Below, one piece after another: positions 1 through 28,796 of a stretch of DNA of 39,501 nucleotides (position 1 is the first letter of the stretch; each line of letters starts with the position of its first letter). Below the pieces are notes generated by a model. That model was not told where the DNA came from, searched no databases, and saw nothing but the letters and a program-made list of their open reading frames with translations. This DNA comes from a virus. Lineage: Duplodnaviria; Heunggongvirae; Uroviricota; Caudoviricetes. The position numbers and the translations under genes are program-made. The stretch is taken from the IMG/VR virus record IMGVR_UViG_2671180547_000005; one strand, 5' to 3'.

Positions 1-70
1 TCGGTTTACGGGAAACGGTAAACAGGGCGGCGAATGCTCTGCCATCGGACGGCACCGCCGTTGCCGCGAA
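1..70. repeat. Left inverted-repeat copy of the invertible tail-fibre segment; positions 1-14 are the inner half of a gix-like site
   Basis: Positions 1..70 match the reverse complement of 1250..1319 with one mismatch (position 38). Window starts at the core dinucleotide, so the outer half-site is off-window. Confidence 0.75.
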
Positions 71-362
71 TAGACTCGCCACCCCAAGAAATATTAATGG
101 GGTTCCCTTTGACGGGACGCAGGACATAAACATCACTTCTGGTATAACACAGCAGGATGCGGATTCCCGATATATCCAGGATATCAGGCTGGGAGCAGAG
201 AACAGGCAGGTAATGTACGGTGGGGCATATTACTCTGCGTACGGTAATGTTATGGCAGGCCTGCAGATTGACAGTAAAGTTGATGCTTCAAACGATTTTA
301 TAGCATTCAGACCCCTGCAAAAATTAGTCGGAGGTACATGGATTACGGTATCTCAGTTATAA
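3..362 (+). CDS. Tail fibre protein, variable C-terminal segment (5' partial; constant part off-window)
   Basis: Open frame from position 3 to TAA at 360..362; the first ~23 aa (GLRETVNRAANALPSDGTAVAAN) are shared with the inverted alternative segment, then diverge. Confidence 0.7.
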   Translation, partial: GLRETVNRAANALPSDGTAVAANRLATPRNINGVPFDGTQDINITSGITQQDADSRYIQDIRLGAENRQVMYGGAYYSAYGNVMAGLQIDSKVDASNDFIAFRPLQKLVGGTWITVSQL

Positions 363-413
363 ATAGTCAGTAAATAATATATTTTAAAACAGATTTATTT
401 CCAGGAGGATTTT

Positions 414-935
414 ATGGAACTAAAAAATATAACCCGTTATTATCCTGAAAATATGCCATATGGTAATAATGTTCAGTATTTCCAGAGTGAAGATGGTAAG
501 GATTTCTACGAATCCCTGCCATTATTCACCAAAAAATATAAACTTTGCATAACACCTGACAGCGGCGTTATCTGCTCAATATCACAGGACGCCTCGGCGC
601 TGTATCCTGCGGGGTTTTCTGTGGTTGAGGTCGATGAACTCCCTGAAGGCACGGATATTTCAGGAAACTGGAAGTTTGATAATGGCATAATCTCCCGTAT
701 TCCGGTTAACTACGCAAGAAAACTGGAAGCAATGCGCCAGTCATATCTTAATCAGGCATATGAAAAAATTAATGACTGGAGAACGGAGCTACAACTGGGC
801 ACCATCAGCGATGAAGACAGAGCAGCACTTACCCAATGGATGGCATACATCAGTCAGGTGAAGAAAATGGAACTACCCGCCATTAAAACAGAAGCTGAAT
901 TTAACGCCATTAAATGGCCTGAGCAGCCACAGTAA
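414..935 (+). CDS. Tail fibre assembly chaperone (Tfa / Mu U-like)
   Basis: 173 aa directly downstream of the fibre segment; C-terminus has the W-x-x-Y ... I-x-WP pattern typical of Tfa proteins. Confidence 0.7.
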   Translation: MELKNITRYYPENMPYGNNVQYFQSEDGKDFYESLPLFTKKYKLCITPDSGVICSISQDASALYPAGFSVVEVDELPEGTDISGNWKFDNGIISRIPVNYARKLEAMRQSYLNQAYEKINDWRTELQLGTISDEDRAALTQWMAYISQVKKMELPAIKTEAEFNAIKWPEQPQ

Positions 936-940
936 TAAAG

Positions 941-960
941 AAGGCCGGAAGGCCTTCTGA
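941..960. terminator. Hairpin between convergent tfa and alternative fibre segment
   Basis: Perfect 8-bp stem AGAAGGCC / GGCCTTCT with a 4-nt loop, AU-rich flanks, between two convergent stop codons. Confidence 0.4.
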
Positions 961-966
961 ATATCA

Positions 967-1319
967 TTATATACTTGCAGCCGTCACCCATGCTCCATTT
1001 AACAGATACTGCAACGGCCGGTAATACACGCCGCCGACGTTATCTGCCGTATTCTTACCGACATCCTGTACTTTAATTCCGGTAAGAACATTGCCGCCCC
1101 CCAGATTCAGATCCCAGCTTTCCCATGTTCCGGGCATATGTGCGGTCACCGACCCCAGTCTTATGGCGGTTACTGTTCCTGATGAGATAGTGATATCCTG
1201 CGTCCCGTCAAAGGGAACACCATTAATTGTGTGGGCATTTGCCAGCCTGTTCGCGGCAACGGCGGTGCCGTCCGATGGCAGGGCATTCGCCGCCCTGTTT
1301 ACCGTTTCCCGTAAACCGA
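967..1319 (-). CDS. Alternative tail fibre C-terminal segment (silent here; fused to the constant part after inversion)
   Basis: Minus-strand frame is open from the stop at 1351..1353 down to TAA at 967..969; begins with the same ~23 aa as the plus-strand segment and ends with a different ~95 aa tail. Confidence 0.6.
1250..1319. repeat. Right inverted-repeat copy of the invertible segment
   Basis: Reverse complement matches window 1..70 (69/70). Confidence 0.75.
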
Positions 1320-1331
1320 GGTTTTCAGGAA
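1306..1331. promoter_or_regulatory. gix/hix-like 26-bp recombination site (right copy)
   Basis: TTCCCGTAAACC-GA-GGTTTTCAGGAA: near-palindromic 12-2-12 layout, close to the Mu gix sequence as I recall it, immediately upstream of the invertase gene. Confidence 0.65.
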
Positions 1332-1396
1332 AGCCAGGATTAACTCTGTTTTATTCCTCATGCGACAATTCCGGCTTTTTATAATAAGGAAATCGT

Positions 1397-1969
1397 ATGC
1401 TGATTGGGTATATCAGGGTGTCAACAAATGACCAGAATACGGCGCTACAAAGAAATGCGCTGGAATGTGCAGGATGTGAGCTGTTTTTCGAAGACAGAAT
1501 AAGCGGTAAGACAAGGGAGCGTCCCGGACTTAAACGCGCATTAAAGCGACTCCGGCCAGGGGATACCCTGCTGGTCTGGAAACTGGATCGCCTTGGACGC
1601 AGTATGCAGCACCTTGTCCTTTTAACAGAAGAACTCCGGCAACGCGGCGTTAACTTCCGCAGCATTACGGACAATATTGATACATCCACTCCCATGGGAC
1701 GTTTCTTTTTCCATATAATGGGCGCGCTGGCGGAAATGGAGCGGGAACTCATTATTGAACGTACACGCGCGGGTCTTGCTGCTGCCCGTGCTCAGGGGCG
1801 TCATGGCGGCAGACCTCAGAAACTGACAGAGAAAGAGCGGGAGCAAATCGCCCGTTTGCTGGCTAATGGCGAGTCCCGTAAACAAATCGCACTGATATTT
1901 GATATTGGCCTTTCCACCCTTTATCGTTATTTTCCTGCCTCACCAGCTCCGTCACCAAAAGTACCGTGA
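1397..1969 (+). CDS. gin: Serine DNA invertase, Gin/Hin/Cin/Pin family
   Basis: 190 aa; N-terminal MLIGYIRVSTNDQ with catalytic Ser, resolvase core, C-terminal HTH; adjacent to the gix-like site. Symbol given by analogy to Mu. Confidence 0.9.
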   Translation: MLIGYIRVSTNDQNTALQRNALECAGCELFFEDRISGKTRERPGLKRALKRLRPGDTLLVWKLDRLGRSMQHLVLLTEELRQRGVNFRSITDNIDTSTPMGRFFFHIMGALAEMERELIIERTRAGLAAARAQGRHGGRPQKLTEKEREQIARLLANGESRKQIALIFDIGLSTLYRYFPASPAPSPKVP

Positions 1970-2054
1970 CGCTTTTTTGAATTTCCGCAAAACACATATT
2001 TTTCAGCGGTCGCTATTCTGACTCTGTTTAATTCAGAAACAGGCAGAAAAGACG

Positions 2055-4109
2055 ATGTCAGACTCCAAGTGGAAAATGCTCTCCGCCATGCCCGGAGAGT
2101 TTTCAGTCAAGGTTGCCGGTGGCACGGTGGCATTTATTGAAAGCCCTTTCCGCCCTTCGGGTAATAAAGGGGGGATCACCTTCGCAGACTGCGTGATCCG
2201 CTTCAGCACGAAAGAGCCATTATGGGTAATGCCGGTATCCGGTAATCCCAGTGCAGAAATCACCAGTTCAGGCGTGACTGGCATCATTCCAATCACATCT
2301 GACGTGGCCGGAACGCTCACGCCCTCCGACTGGAATGCACCGGATAACGCCGGGCCTTCCGGTAGCACGAATGGCAGCAGTTCAGAGCCGGAATATTACT
2401 TTGTTGTCATTCTCGCGGGTCAGTCAAATGGCATGGCCTACGGCGAGGGGCTGCCGTTACCGGATTCGTTTGACCGCCCGGACCCACGCATTAAGCAACT
2501 GGCACGCCGCAGTACGGTAACGCCCAACGGTACGTCGTGTACATACAACGACATCATTCCGGCAGACCACTGCCTGCATGATGTTCAGGATATGAGCGGG
2601 ATAAACCACCCGAAAGCTGATCTGGCAAAAGGCCAGTACGGGACTGTCGGTCAGGGGTTGCATATTGCCAAAAAACTGCTTCCCTATATCCCACAGAATG
2701 CCGGGATACTTCTGGTGCCCTGTTGTCGTGGCGGGTCAGCATTCACCACTGGAGCCGACGGCTCATTCAGTGAGGCCAGCGGTGCTTCCGCTGATTCTTC
2801 ACGCTGGGGGGCCGGTAAACCTCTGTATCAGGACCTGGTAAGCCGCACCAAAGTCGCGCTGGCGAAAAACCCGAAAAACAAACTTCTGGCTGTGGTCTGG
2901 ATGCAGGGAGAGGCAGACCTTGCCTCAGGAAGCCAGCAGCATAATAGTTTATTCACGGCCATGGTTCAGCAGTTCAGAACTGACCTGGCTCCGCTTGCTG
3001 CGCAGTGCGTGAGTGGAAATGCCACCACGGTGCCGTGGATTTGCGGTGATACCACGTATTACTGGAAAAACGCTGGCACCGATAAATATGAGGCAGTATA
3101 CGGTGGCTACAAAGGCAAGGAAGCACAGAAAATTTTCTTTGTACCGTTCCTGACGGATGAGAATGGACAGAGCACGCCAACGAATGCTCCGGCGGAAGAC
3201 CCGGATATTGTGGCTGTCGGGTATTACGGTGCAGCATCCCGAACCCAGGGCAGTTTTGTTTCGACACAGCGTGACAGCCATTTCAGCTCATGGGCACGCA
3301 GGGGCGTCATTTCAGACCGTCTGGCCTCAGCTATTATGCTCCATGCAGGGCGCACGGCTGAACTGATGCGTGGGCAGACCGTGACACCACCGGATGAGAA
3401 GCCGTCACCTGATACACCATCAAAACCGTCCACGCCACCCGCAGACACCACGACGATGAGTACGCTATTTGCTTACCGGGCATCTGAGTCTGAAGGACGG
3501 TTGACACCACAGGGTTGGGCTGCCGGAGGTGGCAAGGCTCAAATCGTGGATGATGCCGGAGCCAGCGGGGGTAAGGCAATGAAACTGACCAAGGAAACAG
3601 GAAGAGCCCCCTGGTACCTTGAGCATGATGCTGGTAATGGTGCGGACCTGCTGGGTAAAGGTGGTCTTGTCAGTTGTCGTTTTAAACTCGATGGCGCGCT
3701 TACGGCTAATCAGTACGCACTGGCGCTGTACTGGCCGGTTTCTGCCCTGCCGCAAGGGGTTACTCTGGAAGGAAATGCCGGTCATAACCTGCTGGCATCG
3801 TTCTACGTACAGAGCGATGCCACAGACCTTAACGTGATGTATCACAAAGGAAACACGGCGCAGAACACGAAGCTGGGGTCATTCGGCGCATTTAATAACG
3901 AATGGCATACGCTGGGCTTCCGTTTTGCCGGTAACAACAGTATTGAGGTGACGCCGGTCATTGATGGTAAGGACGGGACACCATTCATGCTGTCGCAGTC
4001 TCCGGTCGGCACGTTTACGGCAGACAAGTTGCGCGTGACCGATATCACTAAAAATGCGACTTACCCGGTACTGATTGACAGTATCGTGGTGGAAGTGAAT
4101 AACGCGTAA
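2055..4109 (+). CDS. NanS-p-like sialate O-acetylesterase (SASA/SGNH domain) with Pro/Thr linker and C-terminal lectin-like domain
   Basis: 684 aa; VVILAGQSNGMAYGEG matches the GQSN motif of the sialate O-acetylesterase family; size and modular layout resemble prophage NanS-p proteins. Confidence 0.6.
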   Translation: MSDSKWKMLSAMPGEFSVKVAGGTVAFIESPFRPSGNKGGITFADCVIRFSTKEPLWVMPVSGNPSAEITSSGVTGIIPITSDVAGTLTPSDWNAPDNAGPSGSTNGSSSEPEYYFVVILAGQSNGMAYGEGLPLPDSFDRPDPRIKQLARRSTVTPNGTSCTYNDIIPADHCLHDVQDMSGINHPKADLAKGQYGTVGQGLHIAKKLLPYIPQNAGILLVPCCRGGSAFTTGADGSFSEASGASADSSRWGAGKPLYQDLVSRTKVALAKNPKNKLLAVVWMQGEADLASGSQQHNSLFTAMVQQFRTDLAPLAAQCVSGNATTVPWICGDTTYYWKNAGTDKYEAVYGGYKGKEAQKIFFVPFLTDENGQSTPTNAPAEDPDIVAVGYYGAASRTQGSFVSTQRDSHFSSWARRGVISDRLASAIMLHAGRTAELMRGQTVTPPDEKPSPDTPSKPSTPPADTTTMSTLFAYRASESEGRLTPQGWAAGGGKAQIVDDAGASGGKAMKLTKETGRAPWYLEHDAGNGADLLGKGGLVSCRFKLDGALTANQYALALYWPVSALPQGVTLEGNAGHNLLASFYVQSDATDLNVMYHKGNTAQNTKLGSFGAFNNEWHTLGFRFAGNNSIEVTPVIDGKDGTPFMLSQSPVGTFTADKLRVTDITKNATYPVLIDSIVVEVNNA

Positions 4110-4110
4110 G

Positions 4111-4146
4111 CAGGATAAAAAAATGCCGCCGGTAAGGGAAAACAAG
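4111..4146 (-). terminator. Intrinsic terminator oriented for leftward transcription
   Basis: 10-bp stem TGCCGCCGGT / ACCGGCGGCA; the 7-nt T-run follows the hairpin only on the minus strand. Confidence 0.5.
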
Positions 4147-4253
4147 AAACCGGCGGCAAAAAGATCGTTATATCCAAAGCAAAAAATGCAGTGCACCTTT
4201 TTACCTAACAGATATTACCGGTGTCAACACCATGTCAATAATTGGGAGGGATA

Positions 4254-4436
4254 ATGACATTTTTACAGCTTATTTTATTGTATTTCTGCACGGCAGTATG
4301 TGCGTTATATCTGGTGAGTGGTGGTTATAAGGCCATCAGAAATTATGTTCGCCGCAAAATTGAGGACGCAGCAGCTGAAAAACTCAGTAAAACAGCGCAG
4401 GTAACTCCGCTCCCAAAAGACCCGACCCAGCCCTGA
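4254..4436 (+). CDS. Small hydrophobic (probably membrane) protein, unknown function
   Basis: ATG at 4254 preceded by GGGAGGG; 60 aa with a hydrophobic N-terminus followed by a charged tail. Confidence 0.45.
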   Translation: MTFLQLILLYFCTAVCALYLVSGGYKAIRNYVRRKIEDAAAEKLSKTAQVTPLPKDPTQP

Positions 4437-4471
4437 TTGCAGGGCTTTATTCCCGCATAAGGAGGATATAC

Positions 4472-4726
4472 ATGCCAGAAATTAAAGGCACCGTCACTGA
4501 AGACCTGGTAAAACAGGCACTGTATTCCGGTGAAGTAAATAAGTTGCTGAAAGCGCAGGTCCGCAAGGATTTTGAGGCACAAATCGACACTTACGTTGAT
4601 GAAGTGCTGGCAAAACTTATTGGGCCAGCAGTTGCGGCCAGTGATGCTGATAATGAGCCGAAAACCGACGCGCAGCCAGAGCAACCAGACCCGGCTCAGC
4701 CCGGAACTGACAGTACCATGATGTAA
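4472..4726 (+). CDS. Small acidic protein, unknown function
   Basis: Strong RBS AAGGAGG 6 nt upstream; 84 aa with an acidic Pro-rich C-terminus. Confidence 0.45.
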   Translation: MPEIKGTVTEDLVKQALYSGEVNKLLKAQVRKDFEAQIDTYVDEVLAKLIGPAVAASDADNEPKTDAQPEQPDPAQPGTDSTMM

Positions 4727-4783
4727 CAATACAAACCGGTGGTGTCCTCTGCCGGTTTGACACTAATGAAAACATCTTTGCCG

Positions 4784-4812
4784 CTATCCAGCCATATGTA
4801 ATCGCTGGATAG
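4784..4812 (+). terminator. Hairpin after the small two-gene cassette
   Basis: Perfect 9-bp inverted repeat CTATCCAGC / GCTGGATAG with an 11-nt loop, followed by a U-rich tract; a second hairpin lies at about 4732..4758. Confidence 0.4.
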
Positions 4813-4893
4813 TATTTCGTATTCAGAAATATAGCTGCTTATGGAGCAGTCAATCCTGCTTCCCCATCCGGGCAGGCAAATGAACCGGTATCA

Positions 4894-5187
4894 TTAGTCC
4901 GATTCACGCTTTTGTAGAATCGTTCCCAGAATGCTATACAGCTCATTAGCCTGTTGCTCCATCATTGAGACGGAGGCTATACGGTGCAAAGTGATTTCAG
5001 GAGGTGGCACACCTCCATCTTCTTGCTGTGGAGGAAAAACATAAGATTTAATAAAAAAGTTGAAGCATATGAACTCTCCCGCACTCGAACTGTATTTGCA
5101 GGCATCTGAATAATCGGAAAAATAATCATTATAGATTTCCGCATTTTCAATCATTTTTCGATTTCTCGTCGTTACATGATTGTCCAT
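4894..5187 (-). CDS. Hypothetical protein in an AT-rich segment (moron candidate)
   Basis: 97 aa; ATG preceded by AAGAGG; region is visibly AT-rich compared with the rest of the phage. Confidence 0.4.
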   Translation of the reverse strand: MDNHVTTRNRKMIENAEIYNDYFSDYSDACKYSSSAGEFICFNFFIKSYVFPPQQEDGGVPPPEITLHRIASVSMMEQQANELYSILGTILQKRESD

Positions 5188-5376
5188 AGCAGCCTCTTAC
5201 GCTGGCAATTAACCAATTGACTTCTATAAATTAGTTGATTTGTTTGCTTTGCGGTATTCAAATGTACAATCATTCAGCACTTATGCGTTACAGCACCGTT
5301 TAAAATTAGTGATCAAACTCATAAATTTTCGCTAATGACATTTCGTGTTATTTGTTGTATCAATTAAATAAATCAA

Positions 5377-5400
5377 ATCGATCGTTTTTGTCGATCGATT
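5377..5400. promoter_or_regulatory. GATC pair in a palindromic context upstream of com-mom
   Basis: GATC at 5380..5383 and 5393..5396 within TCGATCG ... TCGATCGA, about 45 bp upstream of the com start; Mu mom is controlled through GATC methylation. Confidence 0.4.
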
Positions 5401-5443
5401 GAGTGATAAAGATATCAACAACAAAGCAGGAGGTTATGCGGCC

Positions 5444-5644
5444 ATGTATCGAAACATACGGTGCCGACATTGTAACAAGCTACTGGCACGAGCCAGCTTC
5501 AGTTATCTGGAAGTTAAATGTCCGCGCTGTAAAACCCTCAATCAAATCACATCTCAGAGCGCCACAGAGCACCCCACATACACAAGGAAATCCTGTCGTG
5601 GGGAACAGAAAGCAAGTTACATCCCGTATCATCAGCACGCCTGA
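5444..5644 (+). CDS. com: Com-like zinc-finger translational activator of mom
   Basis: 66 aa from the internal ATG with an upstream AGGAGG; CxxC ... CPRC zinc-finger pattern as in Mu Com. Confidence 0.7.
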
Positions 5645-6335
5645 ACTTATTCACTATAACGACAATATCGTCGGTTATGGCTCCCGTGAGTTACGGGTTG
5701 AGACAATAAGTTGCTGGCTGGCCCGGCTGGTCGTCGTCAATAAACATTACAGCCATCGTTTCGTAAATAATTCCTACCTTCATCTGGGCATATTTTCAGA
5801 ACGGGAGCTGGTTGGCGTAATGCAATGGGGTTATGCCCTTAATCCAAACAATGGTGCACGCGTCGTAACTGGCACGCAGAACCGCGAATATATGGAGCTT
5901 AACCGGTTATGGCTGCATGACTGTATGCCGAGAAACTCCGAATCAAGGGCAATCAGTTACGCGCTCAAACTAATCAGACAACTTTATCCGCAGGTGCAGT
6001 GGGTTCAGTCGTTTGCAGATGAGCGTTGTGGCTGTCTTGGTGTCGTGTACCAGGCAAGCAATTTTGATTATGTAGGCAGTCATGAAACAACATTCTATGA
6101 ACTTGATGGCGAGTGGTATCACGAGATTTGCAAGAATGCAATCAAACGAGGAGGACAGCGAGGTGAACATCTGCGGGCTAATATCGACAGAGCCAGTGTT
6201 CATAAATTCCGTCAGTTTCGTTACATCCGGTTTCTGGACAAGAGAGCCAGAAAACGCCTTAACACAAAGCTATTCAAAGTCCAGCCTTACCCAAAACCAC
6301 AAACAGTTAAAACTGGTTTGAAAGAGAGTGAATGA
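5598..6335 (+). CDS. mom: Mom-like DNA modification protein
   Basis: Overlaps the 3' end of com in another frame; GTG at 5598 preceded by AAGGAAA; about 245 aa; last gene before the phage end, as in Mu. Start codon inferred. Confidence 0.55.
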
Positions 6336-6379
6336 ACGCTTAAAAACTCATTCTAAAACTCAAAAGAAAAGCGCCGATT

Positions 6380-6463
6380 TAGTATCAAATAAGTTGCGTA
6401 TCGGCGTTTTTCAGCGGTATCAAATGAAATGCAAATCGGTATCAAAAAAATCGCCGCGCTATA
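6380..6463. repeat. Phage right-end (attR-like) cluster of three closely spaced transposase-site repeats
   Basis: AGTATCAAATAAG (6381), CGGTATCAAATGA (6416), CGGTATCAAAAAAA (6437); inferred terminus about 6456..6463 (...GCGCTATA). Confidence 0.6.
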
Positions 6464-6465
6464 GA

Positions 6466-6504
6466 CAGCCTAAGCGGCTGCTGACCTCCCTGACCATGCT
6501 GTAA
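6466..6504 (+). pseudogene. Detached 3' end of IS66 tnpB (QPKRLLTSLTML-stop)
   Basis: Reads in frame as the continuation of the tnpB that ends at 38853 on the other phage flank (…LLEGIDWR + QPKRLLTSLTML). Confidence 0.5.
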
Positions 6505-6548
6505 ATCTCTTTATCCTGGTTGTCACAGAATAAGCCCGGTAAAATACG

Positions 6549-6853
6549 NNNNNNNNNNNNNNNNNNNNNNNNNNNNNNNNNNNNNNNNNNNNNNNNNNNN
6601 NNNNNNNNNNNNNNNNNNNNNNNNNNNNNNNNNNNNNNNNNNNNNNNNNNNNNNNNNNNNNNNNNNNNNNNNNNNNNNNNNNNNNNNNNNNNNNNNNNNN
6701 NNNNNNNNNNNNNNNNNNNNNNNNNNNNNNNNNNNNNNNNNNNNNNNNNNNNNNNNNNNNNNNNNNNNNNNNNNNNNNNNNNNNNNNNNNNNNNNNNNNN
6801 NNNNNNNNNNNNNNNNNNNNNNNNNNNNNNNNNNNNNNNNNNNNNNNNNNNNN
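6549..6853. other. Assembly gap (305 N)
   Basis: Run of n. Confidence 1.
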
Positions 6854-7221
6854 ACGTCAGCGGGACCAAGACTGTTTTTTGTGGCAAGCGTCCCCAGACC
6901 AAGATAACCACGGGCCAGACGCTGGGCCTCCGCACCGGCATCAGCAATTTCTTTCAGGTTATTTTTCCGGGAAAAGGCATTCGCAGCGATAATGGCTTTA
7001 ATGGACAGCGTAAGCTGGTTTAACTGCGCCTTATCCGGCTGAATACTGGCTTCAGCCAGAATATTCAGCAGTTCGGCCTGGAGAATATTCAGCCAGTCCT
7101 GACCAATCCAGCTGATACCTTTTTGTCCGTCACCTTCGGTAAACCAGGTGGTGGTATTACTCTGCGCCGGTGCCAGCGCAGGCATATTCGCCACGCCGGA
7201 ATTATTATCAACATGAAACAT
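6854..7221 (-). CDS. Tail fibre protein, N-terminal constant part (truncated by the gap)
   Basis: Minus ORF starting at 7221 runs into the N-gap; sits after the gp48-like gene in Mu order. Confidence 0.6.
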
Positions 7222-7781
7222 TAAATAGTCTCCTCTTCATGGCTGTTTGCATAAACGTAAATAAACGTCTGCCATGCAGGCTTATAACGGTTCAGAATAC
7301 ATTCCAGCGCACCGCCTTCATAAATACGCAGCGGCGTGAGAATATCATCCAGCACATTCATATTCCGGTAGCCGGTTTCACTGTTAATCGTGACAATACT
7401 GACCCACTGCGAATCCGGTGAGGGCTGAATGTCAATCTGATAACCAAACTCCGCCGCAAACCGGATATAAAATTCACGGTTCAGCGAGGGCTTCATCCGG
7501 TATTTATTTCCGGCATAACGCTGTCGCTCCGTGAGGGTGGCTCCGGCCATATCACACTCGGGAAGCCCGAGATAACGCTCCCAGTCTTCCAGCAGCAGGC
7601 GCGACGTGTCAGGGAAACGCTCGGCAAGCAGCTGTTTACCCGTCCAGGATACACGCGCTGTCGAATGACTGAGGCCCAGACATAATGATGCCAGTACGGA
7701 TGACGGACGCTTGTCCCATGCCAGCCCGTCAGGCAGTAACTGCAACAGGGCGCGCTGATGCGGGGTCAGGGTTACAGCCAT
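7221..7781 (-). CDS. Mu gp48-like tail protein
   Basis: 186 aa between the baseplate J-like gene and the fibre gene; start overlaps the upstream stop. Confidence 0.6.
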   Translation of the reverse strand: MAVTLTPHQRALLQLLPDGLAWDKRPSSVLASLCLGLSHSTARVSWTGKQLLAERFPDTSRLLLEDWERYLGLPECDMAGATLTERQRYAGNKYRMKPSLNREFYIRFAAEFGYQIDIQPSPDSQWVSIVTINSETGYRNMNVLDDILTPLRIYEGGALECILNRYKPAWQTFIYVYANSHEEETI

Positions 7782-28295: not shown

Positions 28296-28796
28296 TCAGA
28301 CTTTCGGCAAATCGTAACGACATAACCATTCATCCGCCGAACGGCGGGCCTCAAGACCGGGGAGTTTTACCCCCTTTGAATAAATCCAGCGGATATACTG
28401 CTTACAGGACGCGGGCATCTGCCCGGCATTGATAAGGCGCAGGAGCGTGGAGTTGCGAAAGTTCGTTTCACCGGCCCAGAAAATCCAGGAGGCCAGCGCC
28501 ACCGTCTGACCACGGGTAAGCGGCACCTGAACATGACGATCGATAGCCGCAAAGGCCCATTTCATGTCCTTTTCCAGCAGCTCCAGACACTCTTCATCAG
28601 TTTTTGTCATCCCCGGTTTCACATCCGGGCCGGTATGGCCGTAACAGATGGTGGGGGTGCCGGTGGGATCAATGTACGTGGTGTTTTCTTTCCCTTCCCA
28701 GTAGCCGGTGTAGTGCGTGGCAATGGTGAACGTCCCGGCTCCGGCCAGAACAAGGGCAATCAGCTTTTTACGCAGGGGTGCGGGGAGTTTTGGCAT
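28296..28796 (-). CDS. SAR endolysin (GH24 lysozyme, P21 R-like)
   Basis: 166 aa; hydrophobic N-terminal signal-anchor; motifs TICYGHTG and FRNSTLLRLINAGQ resemble SAR lysozymes. Confidence 0.8.
   Translation of the reverse strand: MPKLPAPLRKKLIALVLAGAGTFTIATHYTGYWEGKENTTYIDPTGTPTICYGHTGPDVKPGMTKTDEECLELLEKDMKWAFAAIDRHVQVPLTRGQTVALASWIFWAGETNFRNSTLLRLINAGQMPASCKQYIRWIYSKGVKLPGLEARRSADEWLCRYDLPKV

Follow-up and report, generated by a model that had tools for sequence, protein, structure and literature searches.

We analysed the right end of a Mu-like prophage of Escherichia coli, which is contained in the IMG/VR virus record IMGVR_UViG_2671180547_000005. The whole stretch of 39,501 nucleotides is called the window here. 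It encodes MuA, MuB, GemA, Mor, an endolysin and a LysC-like Rz1, and its right end carries, in this order, an invertible tail-fibre segment, a gin-type recombinase gene, an esterase gene, three small open reading frames (ORFs), com and mom (Table 1). An earlier sequence-only reading of this DNA had regarded the three small genes as a candidate accessory cassette. Our results divide that cassette. The two plus-strand genes, which encode proteins of the DUF1378 and DUF826 families, form one mobile unit together with the esterase gene, a convergent candidate small RNA (sRNA) gene and a terminator-like hairpin, whereas the third gene, designated ORF-C, stands alone in a replaceable cargo slot. 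All three ORFs are more than chance reading frames, as indicated by the Pfam E-values of 9e-32 and 6e-16 for the first two and by the ratios of nonsynonymous to synonymous substitution (dN/dS) of all three, which are described below.

Table 1. Features of the right end of the prophage, with positions in the window
Feature	Position	Strand	Remarks
gin-type recombinase gene	1397-1969		
Predicted NanS-p-type sialate O-acetylesterase gene, 684 aa	2055-4109	+	SASA catalytic domain and DUF6645 C-terminal domain; first gene of the unit
Candidate sRNA gene	4115-4197	-	between esterase stop and DUF1378 start; convergent with the esterase gene
Promoter-like element of the candidate sRNA	4198-4238	-	TTGACA at 4238-4233 and 4227-4222; TAAAAA at 4203-4198
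DUF1378 gene, 60 aa	4254-4436	+	predicted N-terminal transmembrane helix, basic amphipathic helix, Pro-rich tail
Hairpin AGCCCTG/CAGGGCT	4429-4446	+	encloses the DUF1378 stop codon; followed by TTATT
DUF826 gene, 84 aa	4472-4726	+	acidic; predicted short helix, long amphipathic helix, disordered tail
Conserved hairpin, right end of the unit	4732-4759	+	in all Mu-like variants, with changes on both arms
Replaceable cargo slot, 575 bp	4760-5334	.	separates the esterase unit from the com/mom control region
Second hairpin, 12-nt arms, 92% complementary	4784-4812	+	inside the slot; T-rich on the plus-strand side
ORF-C, 97 aa, acidic, pI 4.74	4894-5187	-	orphan in the slot
Conserved region upstream of com	5335-5443	+	right limit of the slot; 92-94% identity to all slot types from 5335
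com	5444-5644		
mom	ends at 6335		

The 60-aa protein matched PF07125 (DUF1378) with an E-value of 9.4e-32 (109.4 bits against a gathering cut-off of 25; positions 1-58 of the 59-position model), and phrog_494 with an E-value of 1.3e-32. The sequence-only reading had described a hydrophobic product behind a strong ribosome-binding site, and both features are present, but it had opened the region at 4242, which is an in-frame TTG codon upstream of the gene. The true start is the ATG at 4254, because GGGAGGG lies 4 nt upstream of it and every family member starts with MTF or MSF. The protein has the size and architecture of PF07125, i.e., 50-60 aa with one N-terminal hydrophobic helix and a conserved core of LYLxSGGY and a basic helix; the motif is invariant across the aligned members. 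A single hydrophobic stretch covers residues 3-21/25 (mean Kyte-Doolittle value of 2.27 over 3-21), and the tail behind it is basic, with an isoelectric point (pI) of 9.99. From the positive-inside rule, the protein is predicted to have its N-terminus outside and its C-terminus inside, with a very short periplasmic part. The dN/dS value was 0.14 against a variant that had diverged at synonymous sites (dS 0.25-0.44), and this variant was used for the values of the other small genes as well. A profile search of the PDB gave noise only, and no convincing plus-strand promoter was detected before the gene by a sigma-70 scan.

The hairpin that had been placed at about 4430-4447 was found at 4429-4446, and the two downstream hairpins also exist (4732-4759 and 4784-4812). 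The first lies in a 63-nt stretch that contains a weaker second hairpin and folds with about -17 kcal/mol. The sampled Mu-like lineages have this hairpin, some with another stem (CCCCG/CGGGG in the type represented by L032), while a comparable hairpin occurred in only a few of the lambdoid loci. It is possibly an attenuator or a stabiliser of the mRNA 3' end.

The 84-aa protein matched PF05696 (DUF826; E-value 6.4e-16, 58.7 bits, gathering cut-off 25) and phrog_311 (E-value 4.9e-28), and its counterpart in the Shiga toxin (Stx) phage Stx2 II scored 101.6 bits against the same Pfam model. As had been described, the protein is acidic (pI 4.24) and its gene has a strong ribosome-binding site, AAGGAGG, 6 nt upstream of the start. 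A short helix and a long amphipathic helix spanning residues 10-50 are predicted, and a disordered, acidic tail rich in Pro, Glu and Gln follows, ending in MM. The AlphaFold model agrees with this, being essentially one long helix, with a predicted local distance difference test score (pLDDT) of 83-94 for residues 11-50 and below 55 from residue 51 on. The search of BFVD with this model returned nothing, and the PDB profile search gave noise only. The dN/dS value was 0.085, and the substitutions in both DUF genes concentrate at third codon positions. A 128-aa ORF on the minus strand (4343-4729) spans the two genes; it is most likely a shadow ORF, because the substitutions follow the codon positions of the plus strand.

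By their sequences, then, DUF1378 and DUF826 are members of known but uncharacterised phage families, both of which spread over several genera, and both genes, like ORF-C, are under purifying selection. No account of a function was found in the literature on either, and the NCBIfam search gave noise only for the three small proteins. The earlier statement that nothing in the region is recognisable thus holds for ORF-C, for which no family match was found, and fails for the other two.

The product of the gene upstream is predicted to be a NanS-p-type sialate O-acetylesterase. It matched SASA (PF03629; E-value 1.5e-13), DUF6645 (PF20350; E-value 7.4e-68) and phrog_143. Its catalytic domain matched E. 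coli NanS (PDB 3pt5; E-value 1.8e-117), and its C-terminal, lectin-like domain matched that of NanS-p (PDB 6yp6; E-value 7e-98). DUF1737 has been identified as the capsid-decoration module of NanS-p of phi24B (gp84; bioRxiv 10.64898/2026.04.10.717836), and NanS-p of 933W also has it. The window esterase lacks this domain, as residues 1-122 gave no Pfam match at all. Its first ~110 residues (window 2055-2420), which stand where NanS-p of Stx phages has DUF1737, had no Pfam or PHROG match. The start codon of the esterase gene has a poor ribosome-binding site, and no terminator was found in the interval from gin to the esterase gene.

The order esterase-DUF1378-DUF826 was found in every informative locus sampled. 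In the viral contigs collected with DUF1378 as the seed, DUF826 lies directly downstream in 80 of 80 and an esterase gene upstream in 79 of 80, the sole exception being a contig without upstream sequence. About 25 of these contigs are Mu-like, with the order gin-esterase-DUF1378-DUF826-slot-com-mom, and about 55 are lambdoid, with the order esterase-DUF1378-DUF826-S-R. An independent collection, seeded with the C-terminal domain of the esterase and limited to the 70 loci that have enough downstream DNA, contained the DUF1378-DUF826 pair about 147-171 nt past the esterase gene in 68. Thus, one and the same unit occurs in two unrelated prophage backbones, lying between gin and com/mom in Mu-like prophages of E. 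coli and directly before the holin gene S or the S-R-Rz lysis genes in lambdoid prophages, which were mostly of the Stx type among the loci sampled. The order in Stx2 phage II is stx2AB, esterase, DUF1378, DUF826, holin S, R and Rz, and the presence of DUF826 and DUF1378 ORFs between nanS-p and S has been mentioned, without further analysis, in PMC10462455. DUF826 was never seen without DUF1378 in the loci sampled. A scan with one genome per species yielded only three DUF1378 loci; tblastn with DUF826 is too insensitive to reach the Stx-phage versions, and the DUF826-seeded viral scan returned Mu-like relatives only. In the EPEC (enteropathogenic E. coli) strain E2348/69, the prophages have esterase-holin loci without the pair.

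The right end of the unit is marked by the hairpin at 4732-4759, whose stem occurs as CAAACCGG.., AAACCGGCAG.., AAACCGACAG.. and CACCGGCAGG.., with both arms changed. A T-run follows this hairpin in some sister variants, which makes it an intrinsic terminator there; in the window, the T-run has been lost at the junction with the slot. Conservation across Mu-like prophages, which the sequence-only reading had proposed as a check, was found for the gene order and this hairpin, while the cargo of the slot varies. Two chimeric loci were also seen. In L069 (96-5136), a Mu-like gin and an esterase gene of the window type (98-99% identical) are followed by DUF1378-DUF826-S-R of the lambdoid type, and L084 (3545-11719) is built likewise, with com/mom in reverse orientation further downstream. 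Either Mu-like and lambdoid prophages recombine through the esterase unit that they share, or this unit is a place where draft assemblies collapse.

The fourth member of the unit is the candidate sRNA gene in the interval between the esterase stop and the DUF1378 start. Only on the minus strand is the stem of its predicted terminator (4124-4133/4149-4158) followed by a run of seven T (4117-4123), which lies at a distance of 8 nt from the stop codon of the esterase gene. The promoter-like element, in which TAAAAA as the -10-like hexamer lies 18 nt from the second TTGACA, abuts the Shine-Dalgarno (SD) sequence of DUF1378 on the other strand; the consensus scan missed it because the -10 hexamer lacks the final T. 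We compared 37 distinct variants of the esterase-DUF1378 interval from both phage backbones. The combination of TTGAC[ATG] and an A-rich hexamer 17-18 nt on was present in 36 of the 37, and the T-run of the terminator was kept in essentially all. Paired cells in the terminator stem amounted to 85.6%, with five pairs changed on both sides, as compared with 21-62% in slid controls. The covariation score was 0.186 versus 0.083 in shuffles, and 0 of 500 shuffles scored as high. The body between promoter and terminator, about 40 nt in the window, is highly variable (~40-70 nt). In three Mu-like loci (L005, L007 and L009), the DUF genes are kept and the gap between the esterase gene and DUF1378 is only 41-63 nt, so that the sRNA element is absent there. 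From these sequence patterns, the locus is of a known kind, and the candidate sRNA in it is a new variant in sequence.

Searches for known RNAs gave the following. Nothing in the whole window reached an Rfam gathering threshold. Membership in Esr41 (RF02676) was considered and rejected, since the scores were 22.2 bits for the window, 28.1 for L004 and 30.4 for L079 against a gathering score of 102. These weak matches are full-length and all at one syntenic spot in the three loci; genuine Esr41 is located on SpLE1 (PMC5286369). Upstream of the esterase gene, lambdoid loci contain sRNA genes of the STnc100/PasD type, AsxR/AgvB and tRNA genes (L004 1203-1462; L078, L040, L066, L070 and others), and none of these was detected in the Mu-like window at the Rfam gathering threshold.

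ORF-C lies outside this unit. In pairwise blastn comparisons, the homology between prophages of different slot types breaks off at about 4758 and is found again from 5335 on. Twenty distinct slot sequences were found, with the com ATG 466-936 nt past the DUF826 stop, and unrelated ORFs of 66 aa (+), 68 aa (-) and 106 aa (-) are the cargo of sister prophages. The earlier expectation that cargo gathers near the phage end is supported here, as the region counts as accessory when compared with phage Mu and includes this variable slot. In the window, the hairpin at 4784-4812 lies between the convergent DUF826 gene and ORF-C. The description of ORF-C as a 97-aa gene on the opposite strand in AT-rich DNA was accurate, its G+C content being 39.8% against 53.7% for the window. 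RefSeq calls an 86-aa protein, and the 97-aa start is better supported because AAGAGG stands as an SD sequence 5 nt upstream and the variant of strain CI5 lacks the internal Met. Among 5.8 billion proteins, only 14 near-identical relatives were found, all from E. coli or Shigella and always in the same Mu-like prophage context, and no remote homologue was found among 1.84 billion cluster representatives. No match was obtained in Pfam, PHROG, NCBIfam, PADLOC or by sequence in the PDB. The dN/dS value was 0.34-0.36 against the diverged variant. No frame but its own is open in the two variants, and values of 0.61-1.22 were obtained for the remaining five. A low-confidence model (pLDDT 61.5) consists of four beta-strands and a C-terminal helix, and fold searches with it yielded no informative match. 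A sigma-70 scan detected no promoter upstream. These results show that ORF-C is a lineage-restricted orphan gene in a swappable slot, separate from the esterase unit.

Towards com, GATC sites are located at 5311, 5380 and 5393. The latter two fall in a cluster of overlapping palindromes at 5376-5400 (AATCGATCG...CGATCGATT), ~50 nt upstream of com, which is reminiscent of the Dam/OxyR control region of the Mu mom operon. By this analogy, 5335-5443 is presumably the control region of the mom operon. The com ORF of the window is intact and its protein is the same as that of strain CI5 (dN = 0 against CI5); com of E. coli JE86-ST05 is marked as frameshifted by RefSeq (L001 10345-10544).

The DNA from 4100 to 5420 occurs identically in 14 complete E. 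coli genomes, with close variants in further genomes. The prophages that carry it are inserted at many chromosomal sites, in keeping with a transposable phage. Megablast of the same DNA against phages gave no match, and the only match in a distant blastn search of sequenced phages was a Mu-like insert within two Stx-phage records. As compared with the collinear prophage of JE86-ST05 (L001), the right-end block of the window (1-6548) is inverted relative to the tail/baseplate genes that follow. The block comprises the G segment, gin, esterase, small genes, com, mom and ~130 nt of prophage end, together with ~85 nt without a match in L001. A run of 305 N (6549-6853) lies exactly at the inversion junction, and position 1 of the window is the outer edge of the invertible G segment. 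Either scaffolding or assembly went wrong at the invertible repeat, or a large segment has truly been inverted. In prophages of the CI5 and P0009 types, no gin recombinase gene is called between the tail-fibre assembly gene and the esterase gene (L003 3110-3936; L262-L267 about 7121-7426).

As for the function of the pair, we favour, tentatively and as a possibility only, that DUF1378 is a late inner-membrane protein and DUF826 its acidic cytoplasmic partner, and that they modulate lysis. The most telling observation comes from outside E. coli. In four loci of two lineages (the Lonsdalea-type L011, L132 and L121, and L122), DUF1378 is the last gene in the order holin-endolysin-Rz/Rz1-DUF1378, and its start codon and the stop codon of the Rz-like spanin gene overlap as ATGA (L011 5417-6150; L121 3549-4177; L122 4474-5153; L132 4450-5150). 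No DUF826 lies beside it there, and no esterase gene is among the nearby ORFs inspected. Within that scope, DUF1378 without an esterase gene was found in five loci of three lineages, whereas lysis genes belong to every phage. As DUF1378 occurs without the esterase and DUF826, the common partner would be the phage envelope/lysis machinery or the host membrane, and this argues for a lysis modulator. In more than 50 lambdoid loci of E. coli, the pair lies ~80 nt upstream of holin S. The endolysins of carrier phages that were checked have a hydrophobic N-terminus of the signal-anchor-release (SAR) type (L122; window endolysin 28296-28796), and the holins of Stx2a phages are pinholins according to PMC10462455. 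In addition, the basic tail of DUF1378 and the acidic DUF826 are complementary in charge.

According to this model, DUF1378 would insert into the inner membrane with its basic helix facing the cytoplasm, and DUF826 would serve as its putative cytoplasmic partner or adaptor in E. coli phages. Located at the cytoplasmic face of the membrane late in infection, the two proteins may modulate the timing of phage lysis, possibly by acting on pinholin triggering or on SAR endolysin release; the esterase itself would not be a target. The convergent sRNA would be antisense to the esterase-DUF1378 junction of a read-through transcript, and for this reason it may uncouple the expression of the small genes from that of the esterase. 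A more specific version, which we consider rather doubtful, is that the pair constitutes an unrecognised two-protein regulator of lysis timing, a membrane anchor with an acidic coiled coil, acting in trans on pinholin/SAR-endolysin systems and travelling as a block with NanS-p and the sRNA between lambdoid (Stx) and Mu-like phages.

Several observations weigh against a role in lysis. Searches of Pfam, NCBIfam, PHROG and the PDB related neither protein to a known holin, antiholin, spanin or releasin. In the Mu-like phage, the pair is ~23 kb away from the phage's own lysis genes, and it entered Mu-like phages together with the esterase gene, not with S-R-Rz. In Cedecea neteri (L010, 4797-5804), a solitary DUF1378 gene has a tail-fibre gene before it and a D12-class (Dam-type) adenine methyltransferase gene behind it, with neither lysis nor esterase genes adjacent. 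Adjacency to lysis genes is weak evidence, because accessory genes, too, are classically inserted at the edges of lysis cassettes. The lack of a detected terminator between gin and the esterase gene makes expression in the lysogen possible, which fits lysogenic conversion or exclusion better than lysis. Finally, the pair is dispensable for lysis, as the esterase-holin prophages of E2348/69 do without it.

The linkage of the three genes could also mean that DUF1378 and DUF826 are accessory factors of the esterase, serving to anchor, chaperone, process or release NanS-p or to couple it to sialic-acid uptake. The almost absolute linkage in E. coli, with the pair in 68 of 70 esterase loci and the esterase in all informative loci of the pair, is in line with this idea, and so is the joint arrival of the three genes in Mu-like prophages, without lysis genes and as a unit with its own end hairpin. 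NanS-p of phi24B moreover shows an unexplained proteolytic maturation (bioRxiv 10.64898/2026.04.10.717836). We nevertheless consider this explanation doubtful. DUF1378 is found without an esterase gene among the nearby ORFs inspected in the Lonsdalea-type, L122 and Cedecea loci, and esterases of the E2348/69 type occur without the pair. In addition, linkage of adjacent genes can be plain co-inheritance, and the convergent sRNA gene separates the esterase gene from the pair.

It is unlikely that the region is a prophage-expressed protection module, as the sequence-only reading had speculated for the membrane protein and its small soluble partner. In such a module, DUF1378, with or without DUF826, would block the entry of superinfecting DNA or trigger abortive infection, and ORF-C might act separately in defence or anti-defence. 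The accessory position of a small bitopic membrane protein would suit such a role, low-level expression in the lysogen is plausible as no terminator was found between gin and the esterase gene, and ORF-C occupies a hypervariable slot with alternative cargo beside the anti-restriction gene mom. However, PADLOC-DB contained no significant defence-system match for any of the three proteins, the sole match being DUF826 against PbeC with an E-value of 0.0076 and 12.9 bits over 51 residues of a 643-position model. The translational coupling of DUF1378 to a late spanin gene in four loci and the location of the lambdoid pair inside the late operon also speak against it, and no promoter was detected before DUF1378 or ORF-C. 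The finding by which the sequence-only reading would have been refuted, a clear relation to phage proteins of structural or housekeeping type, did not come up in the profile and structure searches for the three proteins.

Small membrane regulators such as AcrZ and MgrB consist of one transmembrane helix and a short cytoplasmic helix, and the architecture of DUF1378 resembles theirs. By this analogy, DUF1378 may bind a transporter or sensor of the host inner membrane, with DUF826 tuning the interaction, to the benefit of a lysogen in gut mucus alongside NanS-p. DUF1378 indeed travels with a niche-adaptation enzyme and occurs in unrelated phage backgrounds, also alone. On the other hand, a role in the lysogenic phase is at odds with the coupling to Rz and with the place of the pair in the late operon of lambdoid phages, and profile searches of the family libraries and the PDB revealed no sequence relation to characterised small regulators. 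Such a regulator of lysogenic conversion is thus quite unlikely. It is highly improbable that the region is kept only for sRNAs or transcript structures, as at the PasA/PasC loci, with the small ORFs as passengers: 36 of 37 intergenic variants retain the promoter and terminator of the sRNA, and in EPEC this position is known to hold Hfq-dependent sRNAs (PMC8550237, PMC13192938), but the dN/dS values of 0.085-0.14 and the third-position substitutions indicate selection at the protein level, the Pfam families extend across several genera, and L005, L007 and L009 keep the genes without the sRNA.

If DUF1378 and DUF826 do modulate lysis, the pair in Stx phages would help to set the timing and amount of toxin and esterase release. 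The interval from stx/nanS-p to the holin gene is within the late transcript that delivers toxin release. New in this analysis are the block of esterase, sRNA, DUF1378 and DUF826 that is kept under purifying selection in Mu-like prophages at many chromosomal sites, the translational coupling of DUF1378 to a spanin gene in other genera, and the conserved promoter-terminator pair of a convergent candidate sRNA, by which the PasA/PasC type of locus is extended to a new phage backbone. The gene content by itself is at the level of annotation, as two of the genes already carry DUF names in RefSeq and the third is a narrow orphan.

ORF-C resembles phage morons such as bor and lom of lambda, and the cargo hotspots of P2-like phages. 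It is the only gene of an AT-rich, replaceable slot between conserved modules, is oriented against its neighbours and has alternative cargo as its counterpart in sister prophages. It differs in that no recognisable promoter was found upstream, and no homology to a known conversion, defence or anti-defence protein was found for it. The RI/RIII antiholin pair of T4 is composed of a membrane-anchored and a helical cytoplasmic protein (97 and 82 aa) that tune holin triggering. DUF1378 and DUF826 (60 and 84 aa) are similar to them in size, and the likeness may be a functional analogy only. No relation in sequence or fold was found. RI has its functional domain in the periplasm, into which DUF1378 hardly extends, and the holin partner is T of T4 for RI/RIII, as compared with pinholin or Mu-type systems for the DUF pair.

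The candidate sRNA can be compared with PasA and PasC, which are Hfq-dependent sRNAs of EPEC E2348/69 with the homologues EcOnc51/52 in enterohaemorrhagic E. coli (EHEC; Pearl Mizrahi 2021 Table S6, PMC8550237; Zhu, Shabalina and Storz 2026, PMC13192938). Each of the three lies directly downstream of a SASA esterase gene, is directed towards it, has a length (predicted for the candidate) of ~80 nt with a GC-rich terminator and a U-tract, and has a promoter of the type TTGACA plus an A-rich -10 hexamer. The terminator abuts the esterase stop in PasC, whose 3' end is 2 nt from it, in the long form of PasA and in the window candidate. Global alignment of the candidate with PasA and PasC gave z values of 0.7 and 1.3, i.e., the level of shuffled sequences, and the sequences do not align beyond the terminator. 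A resemblance to the candidate is limited to that part of the long PasA form which contains the terminator and lies next to the esterase gene (z 3.4). E2348/69 has no DUF1378/DUF826 beside PasA/PasC, whereas the window has both.

The closest known arrangement is the interval from nanS-p to S in lambdoid Stx phages (933W, Stx2 II). It has the same three families in the same order and spacing as the window, and its gap from the esterase stop to DUF1378 likewise holds the convergent promoter-terminator element. The proteins have diverged, DUF826 being 37% and DUF1378 ~52% identical between the two versions. NanS-p of the Stx phages has the DUF1737 N-terminal domain, which is lacking in the window esterase, and the ribosome-binding site of DUF826 is much stronger in the window than in the Stx-phage counterpart. 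The Stx unit is part of a Q-dependent late operon beside the holin gene, whereas that of the window is placed between gin and com/mom of a transposable Mu-like prophage.

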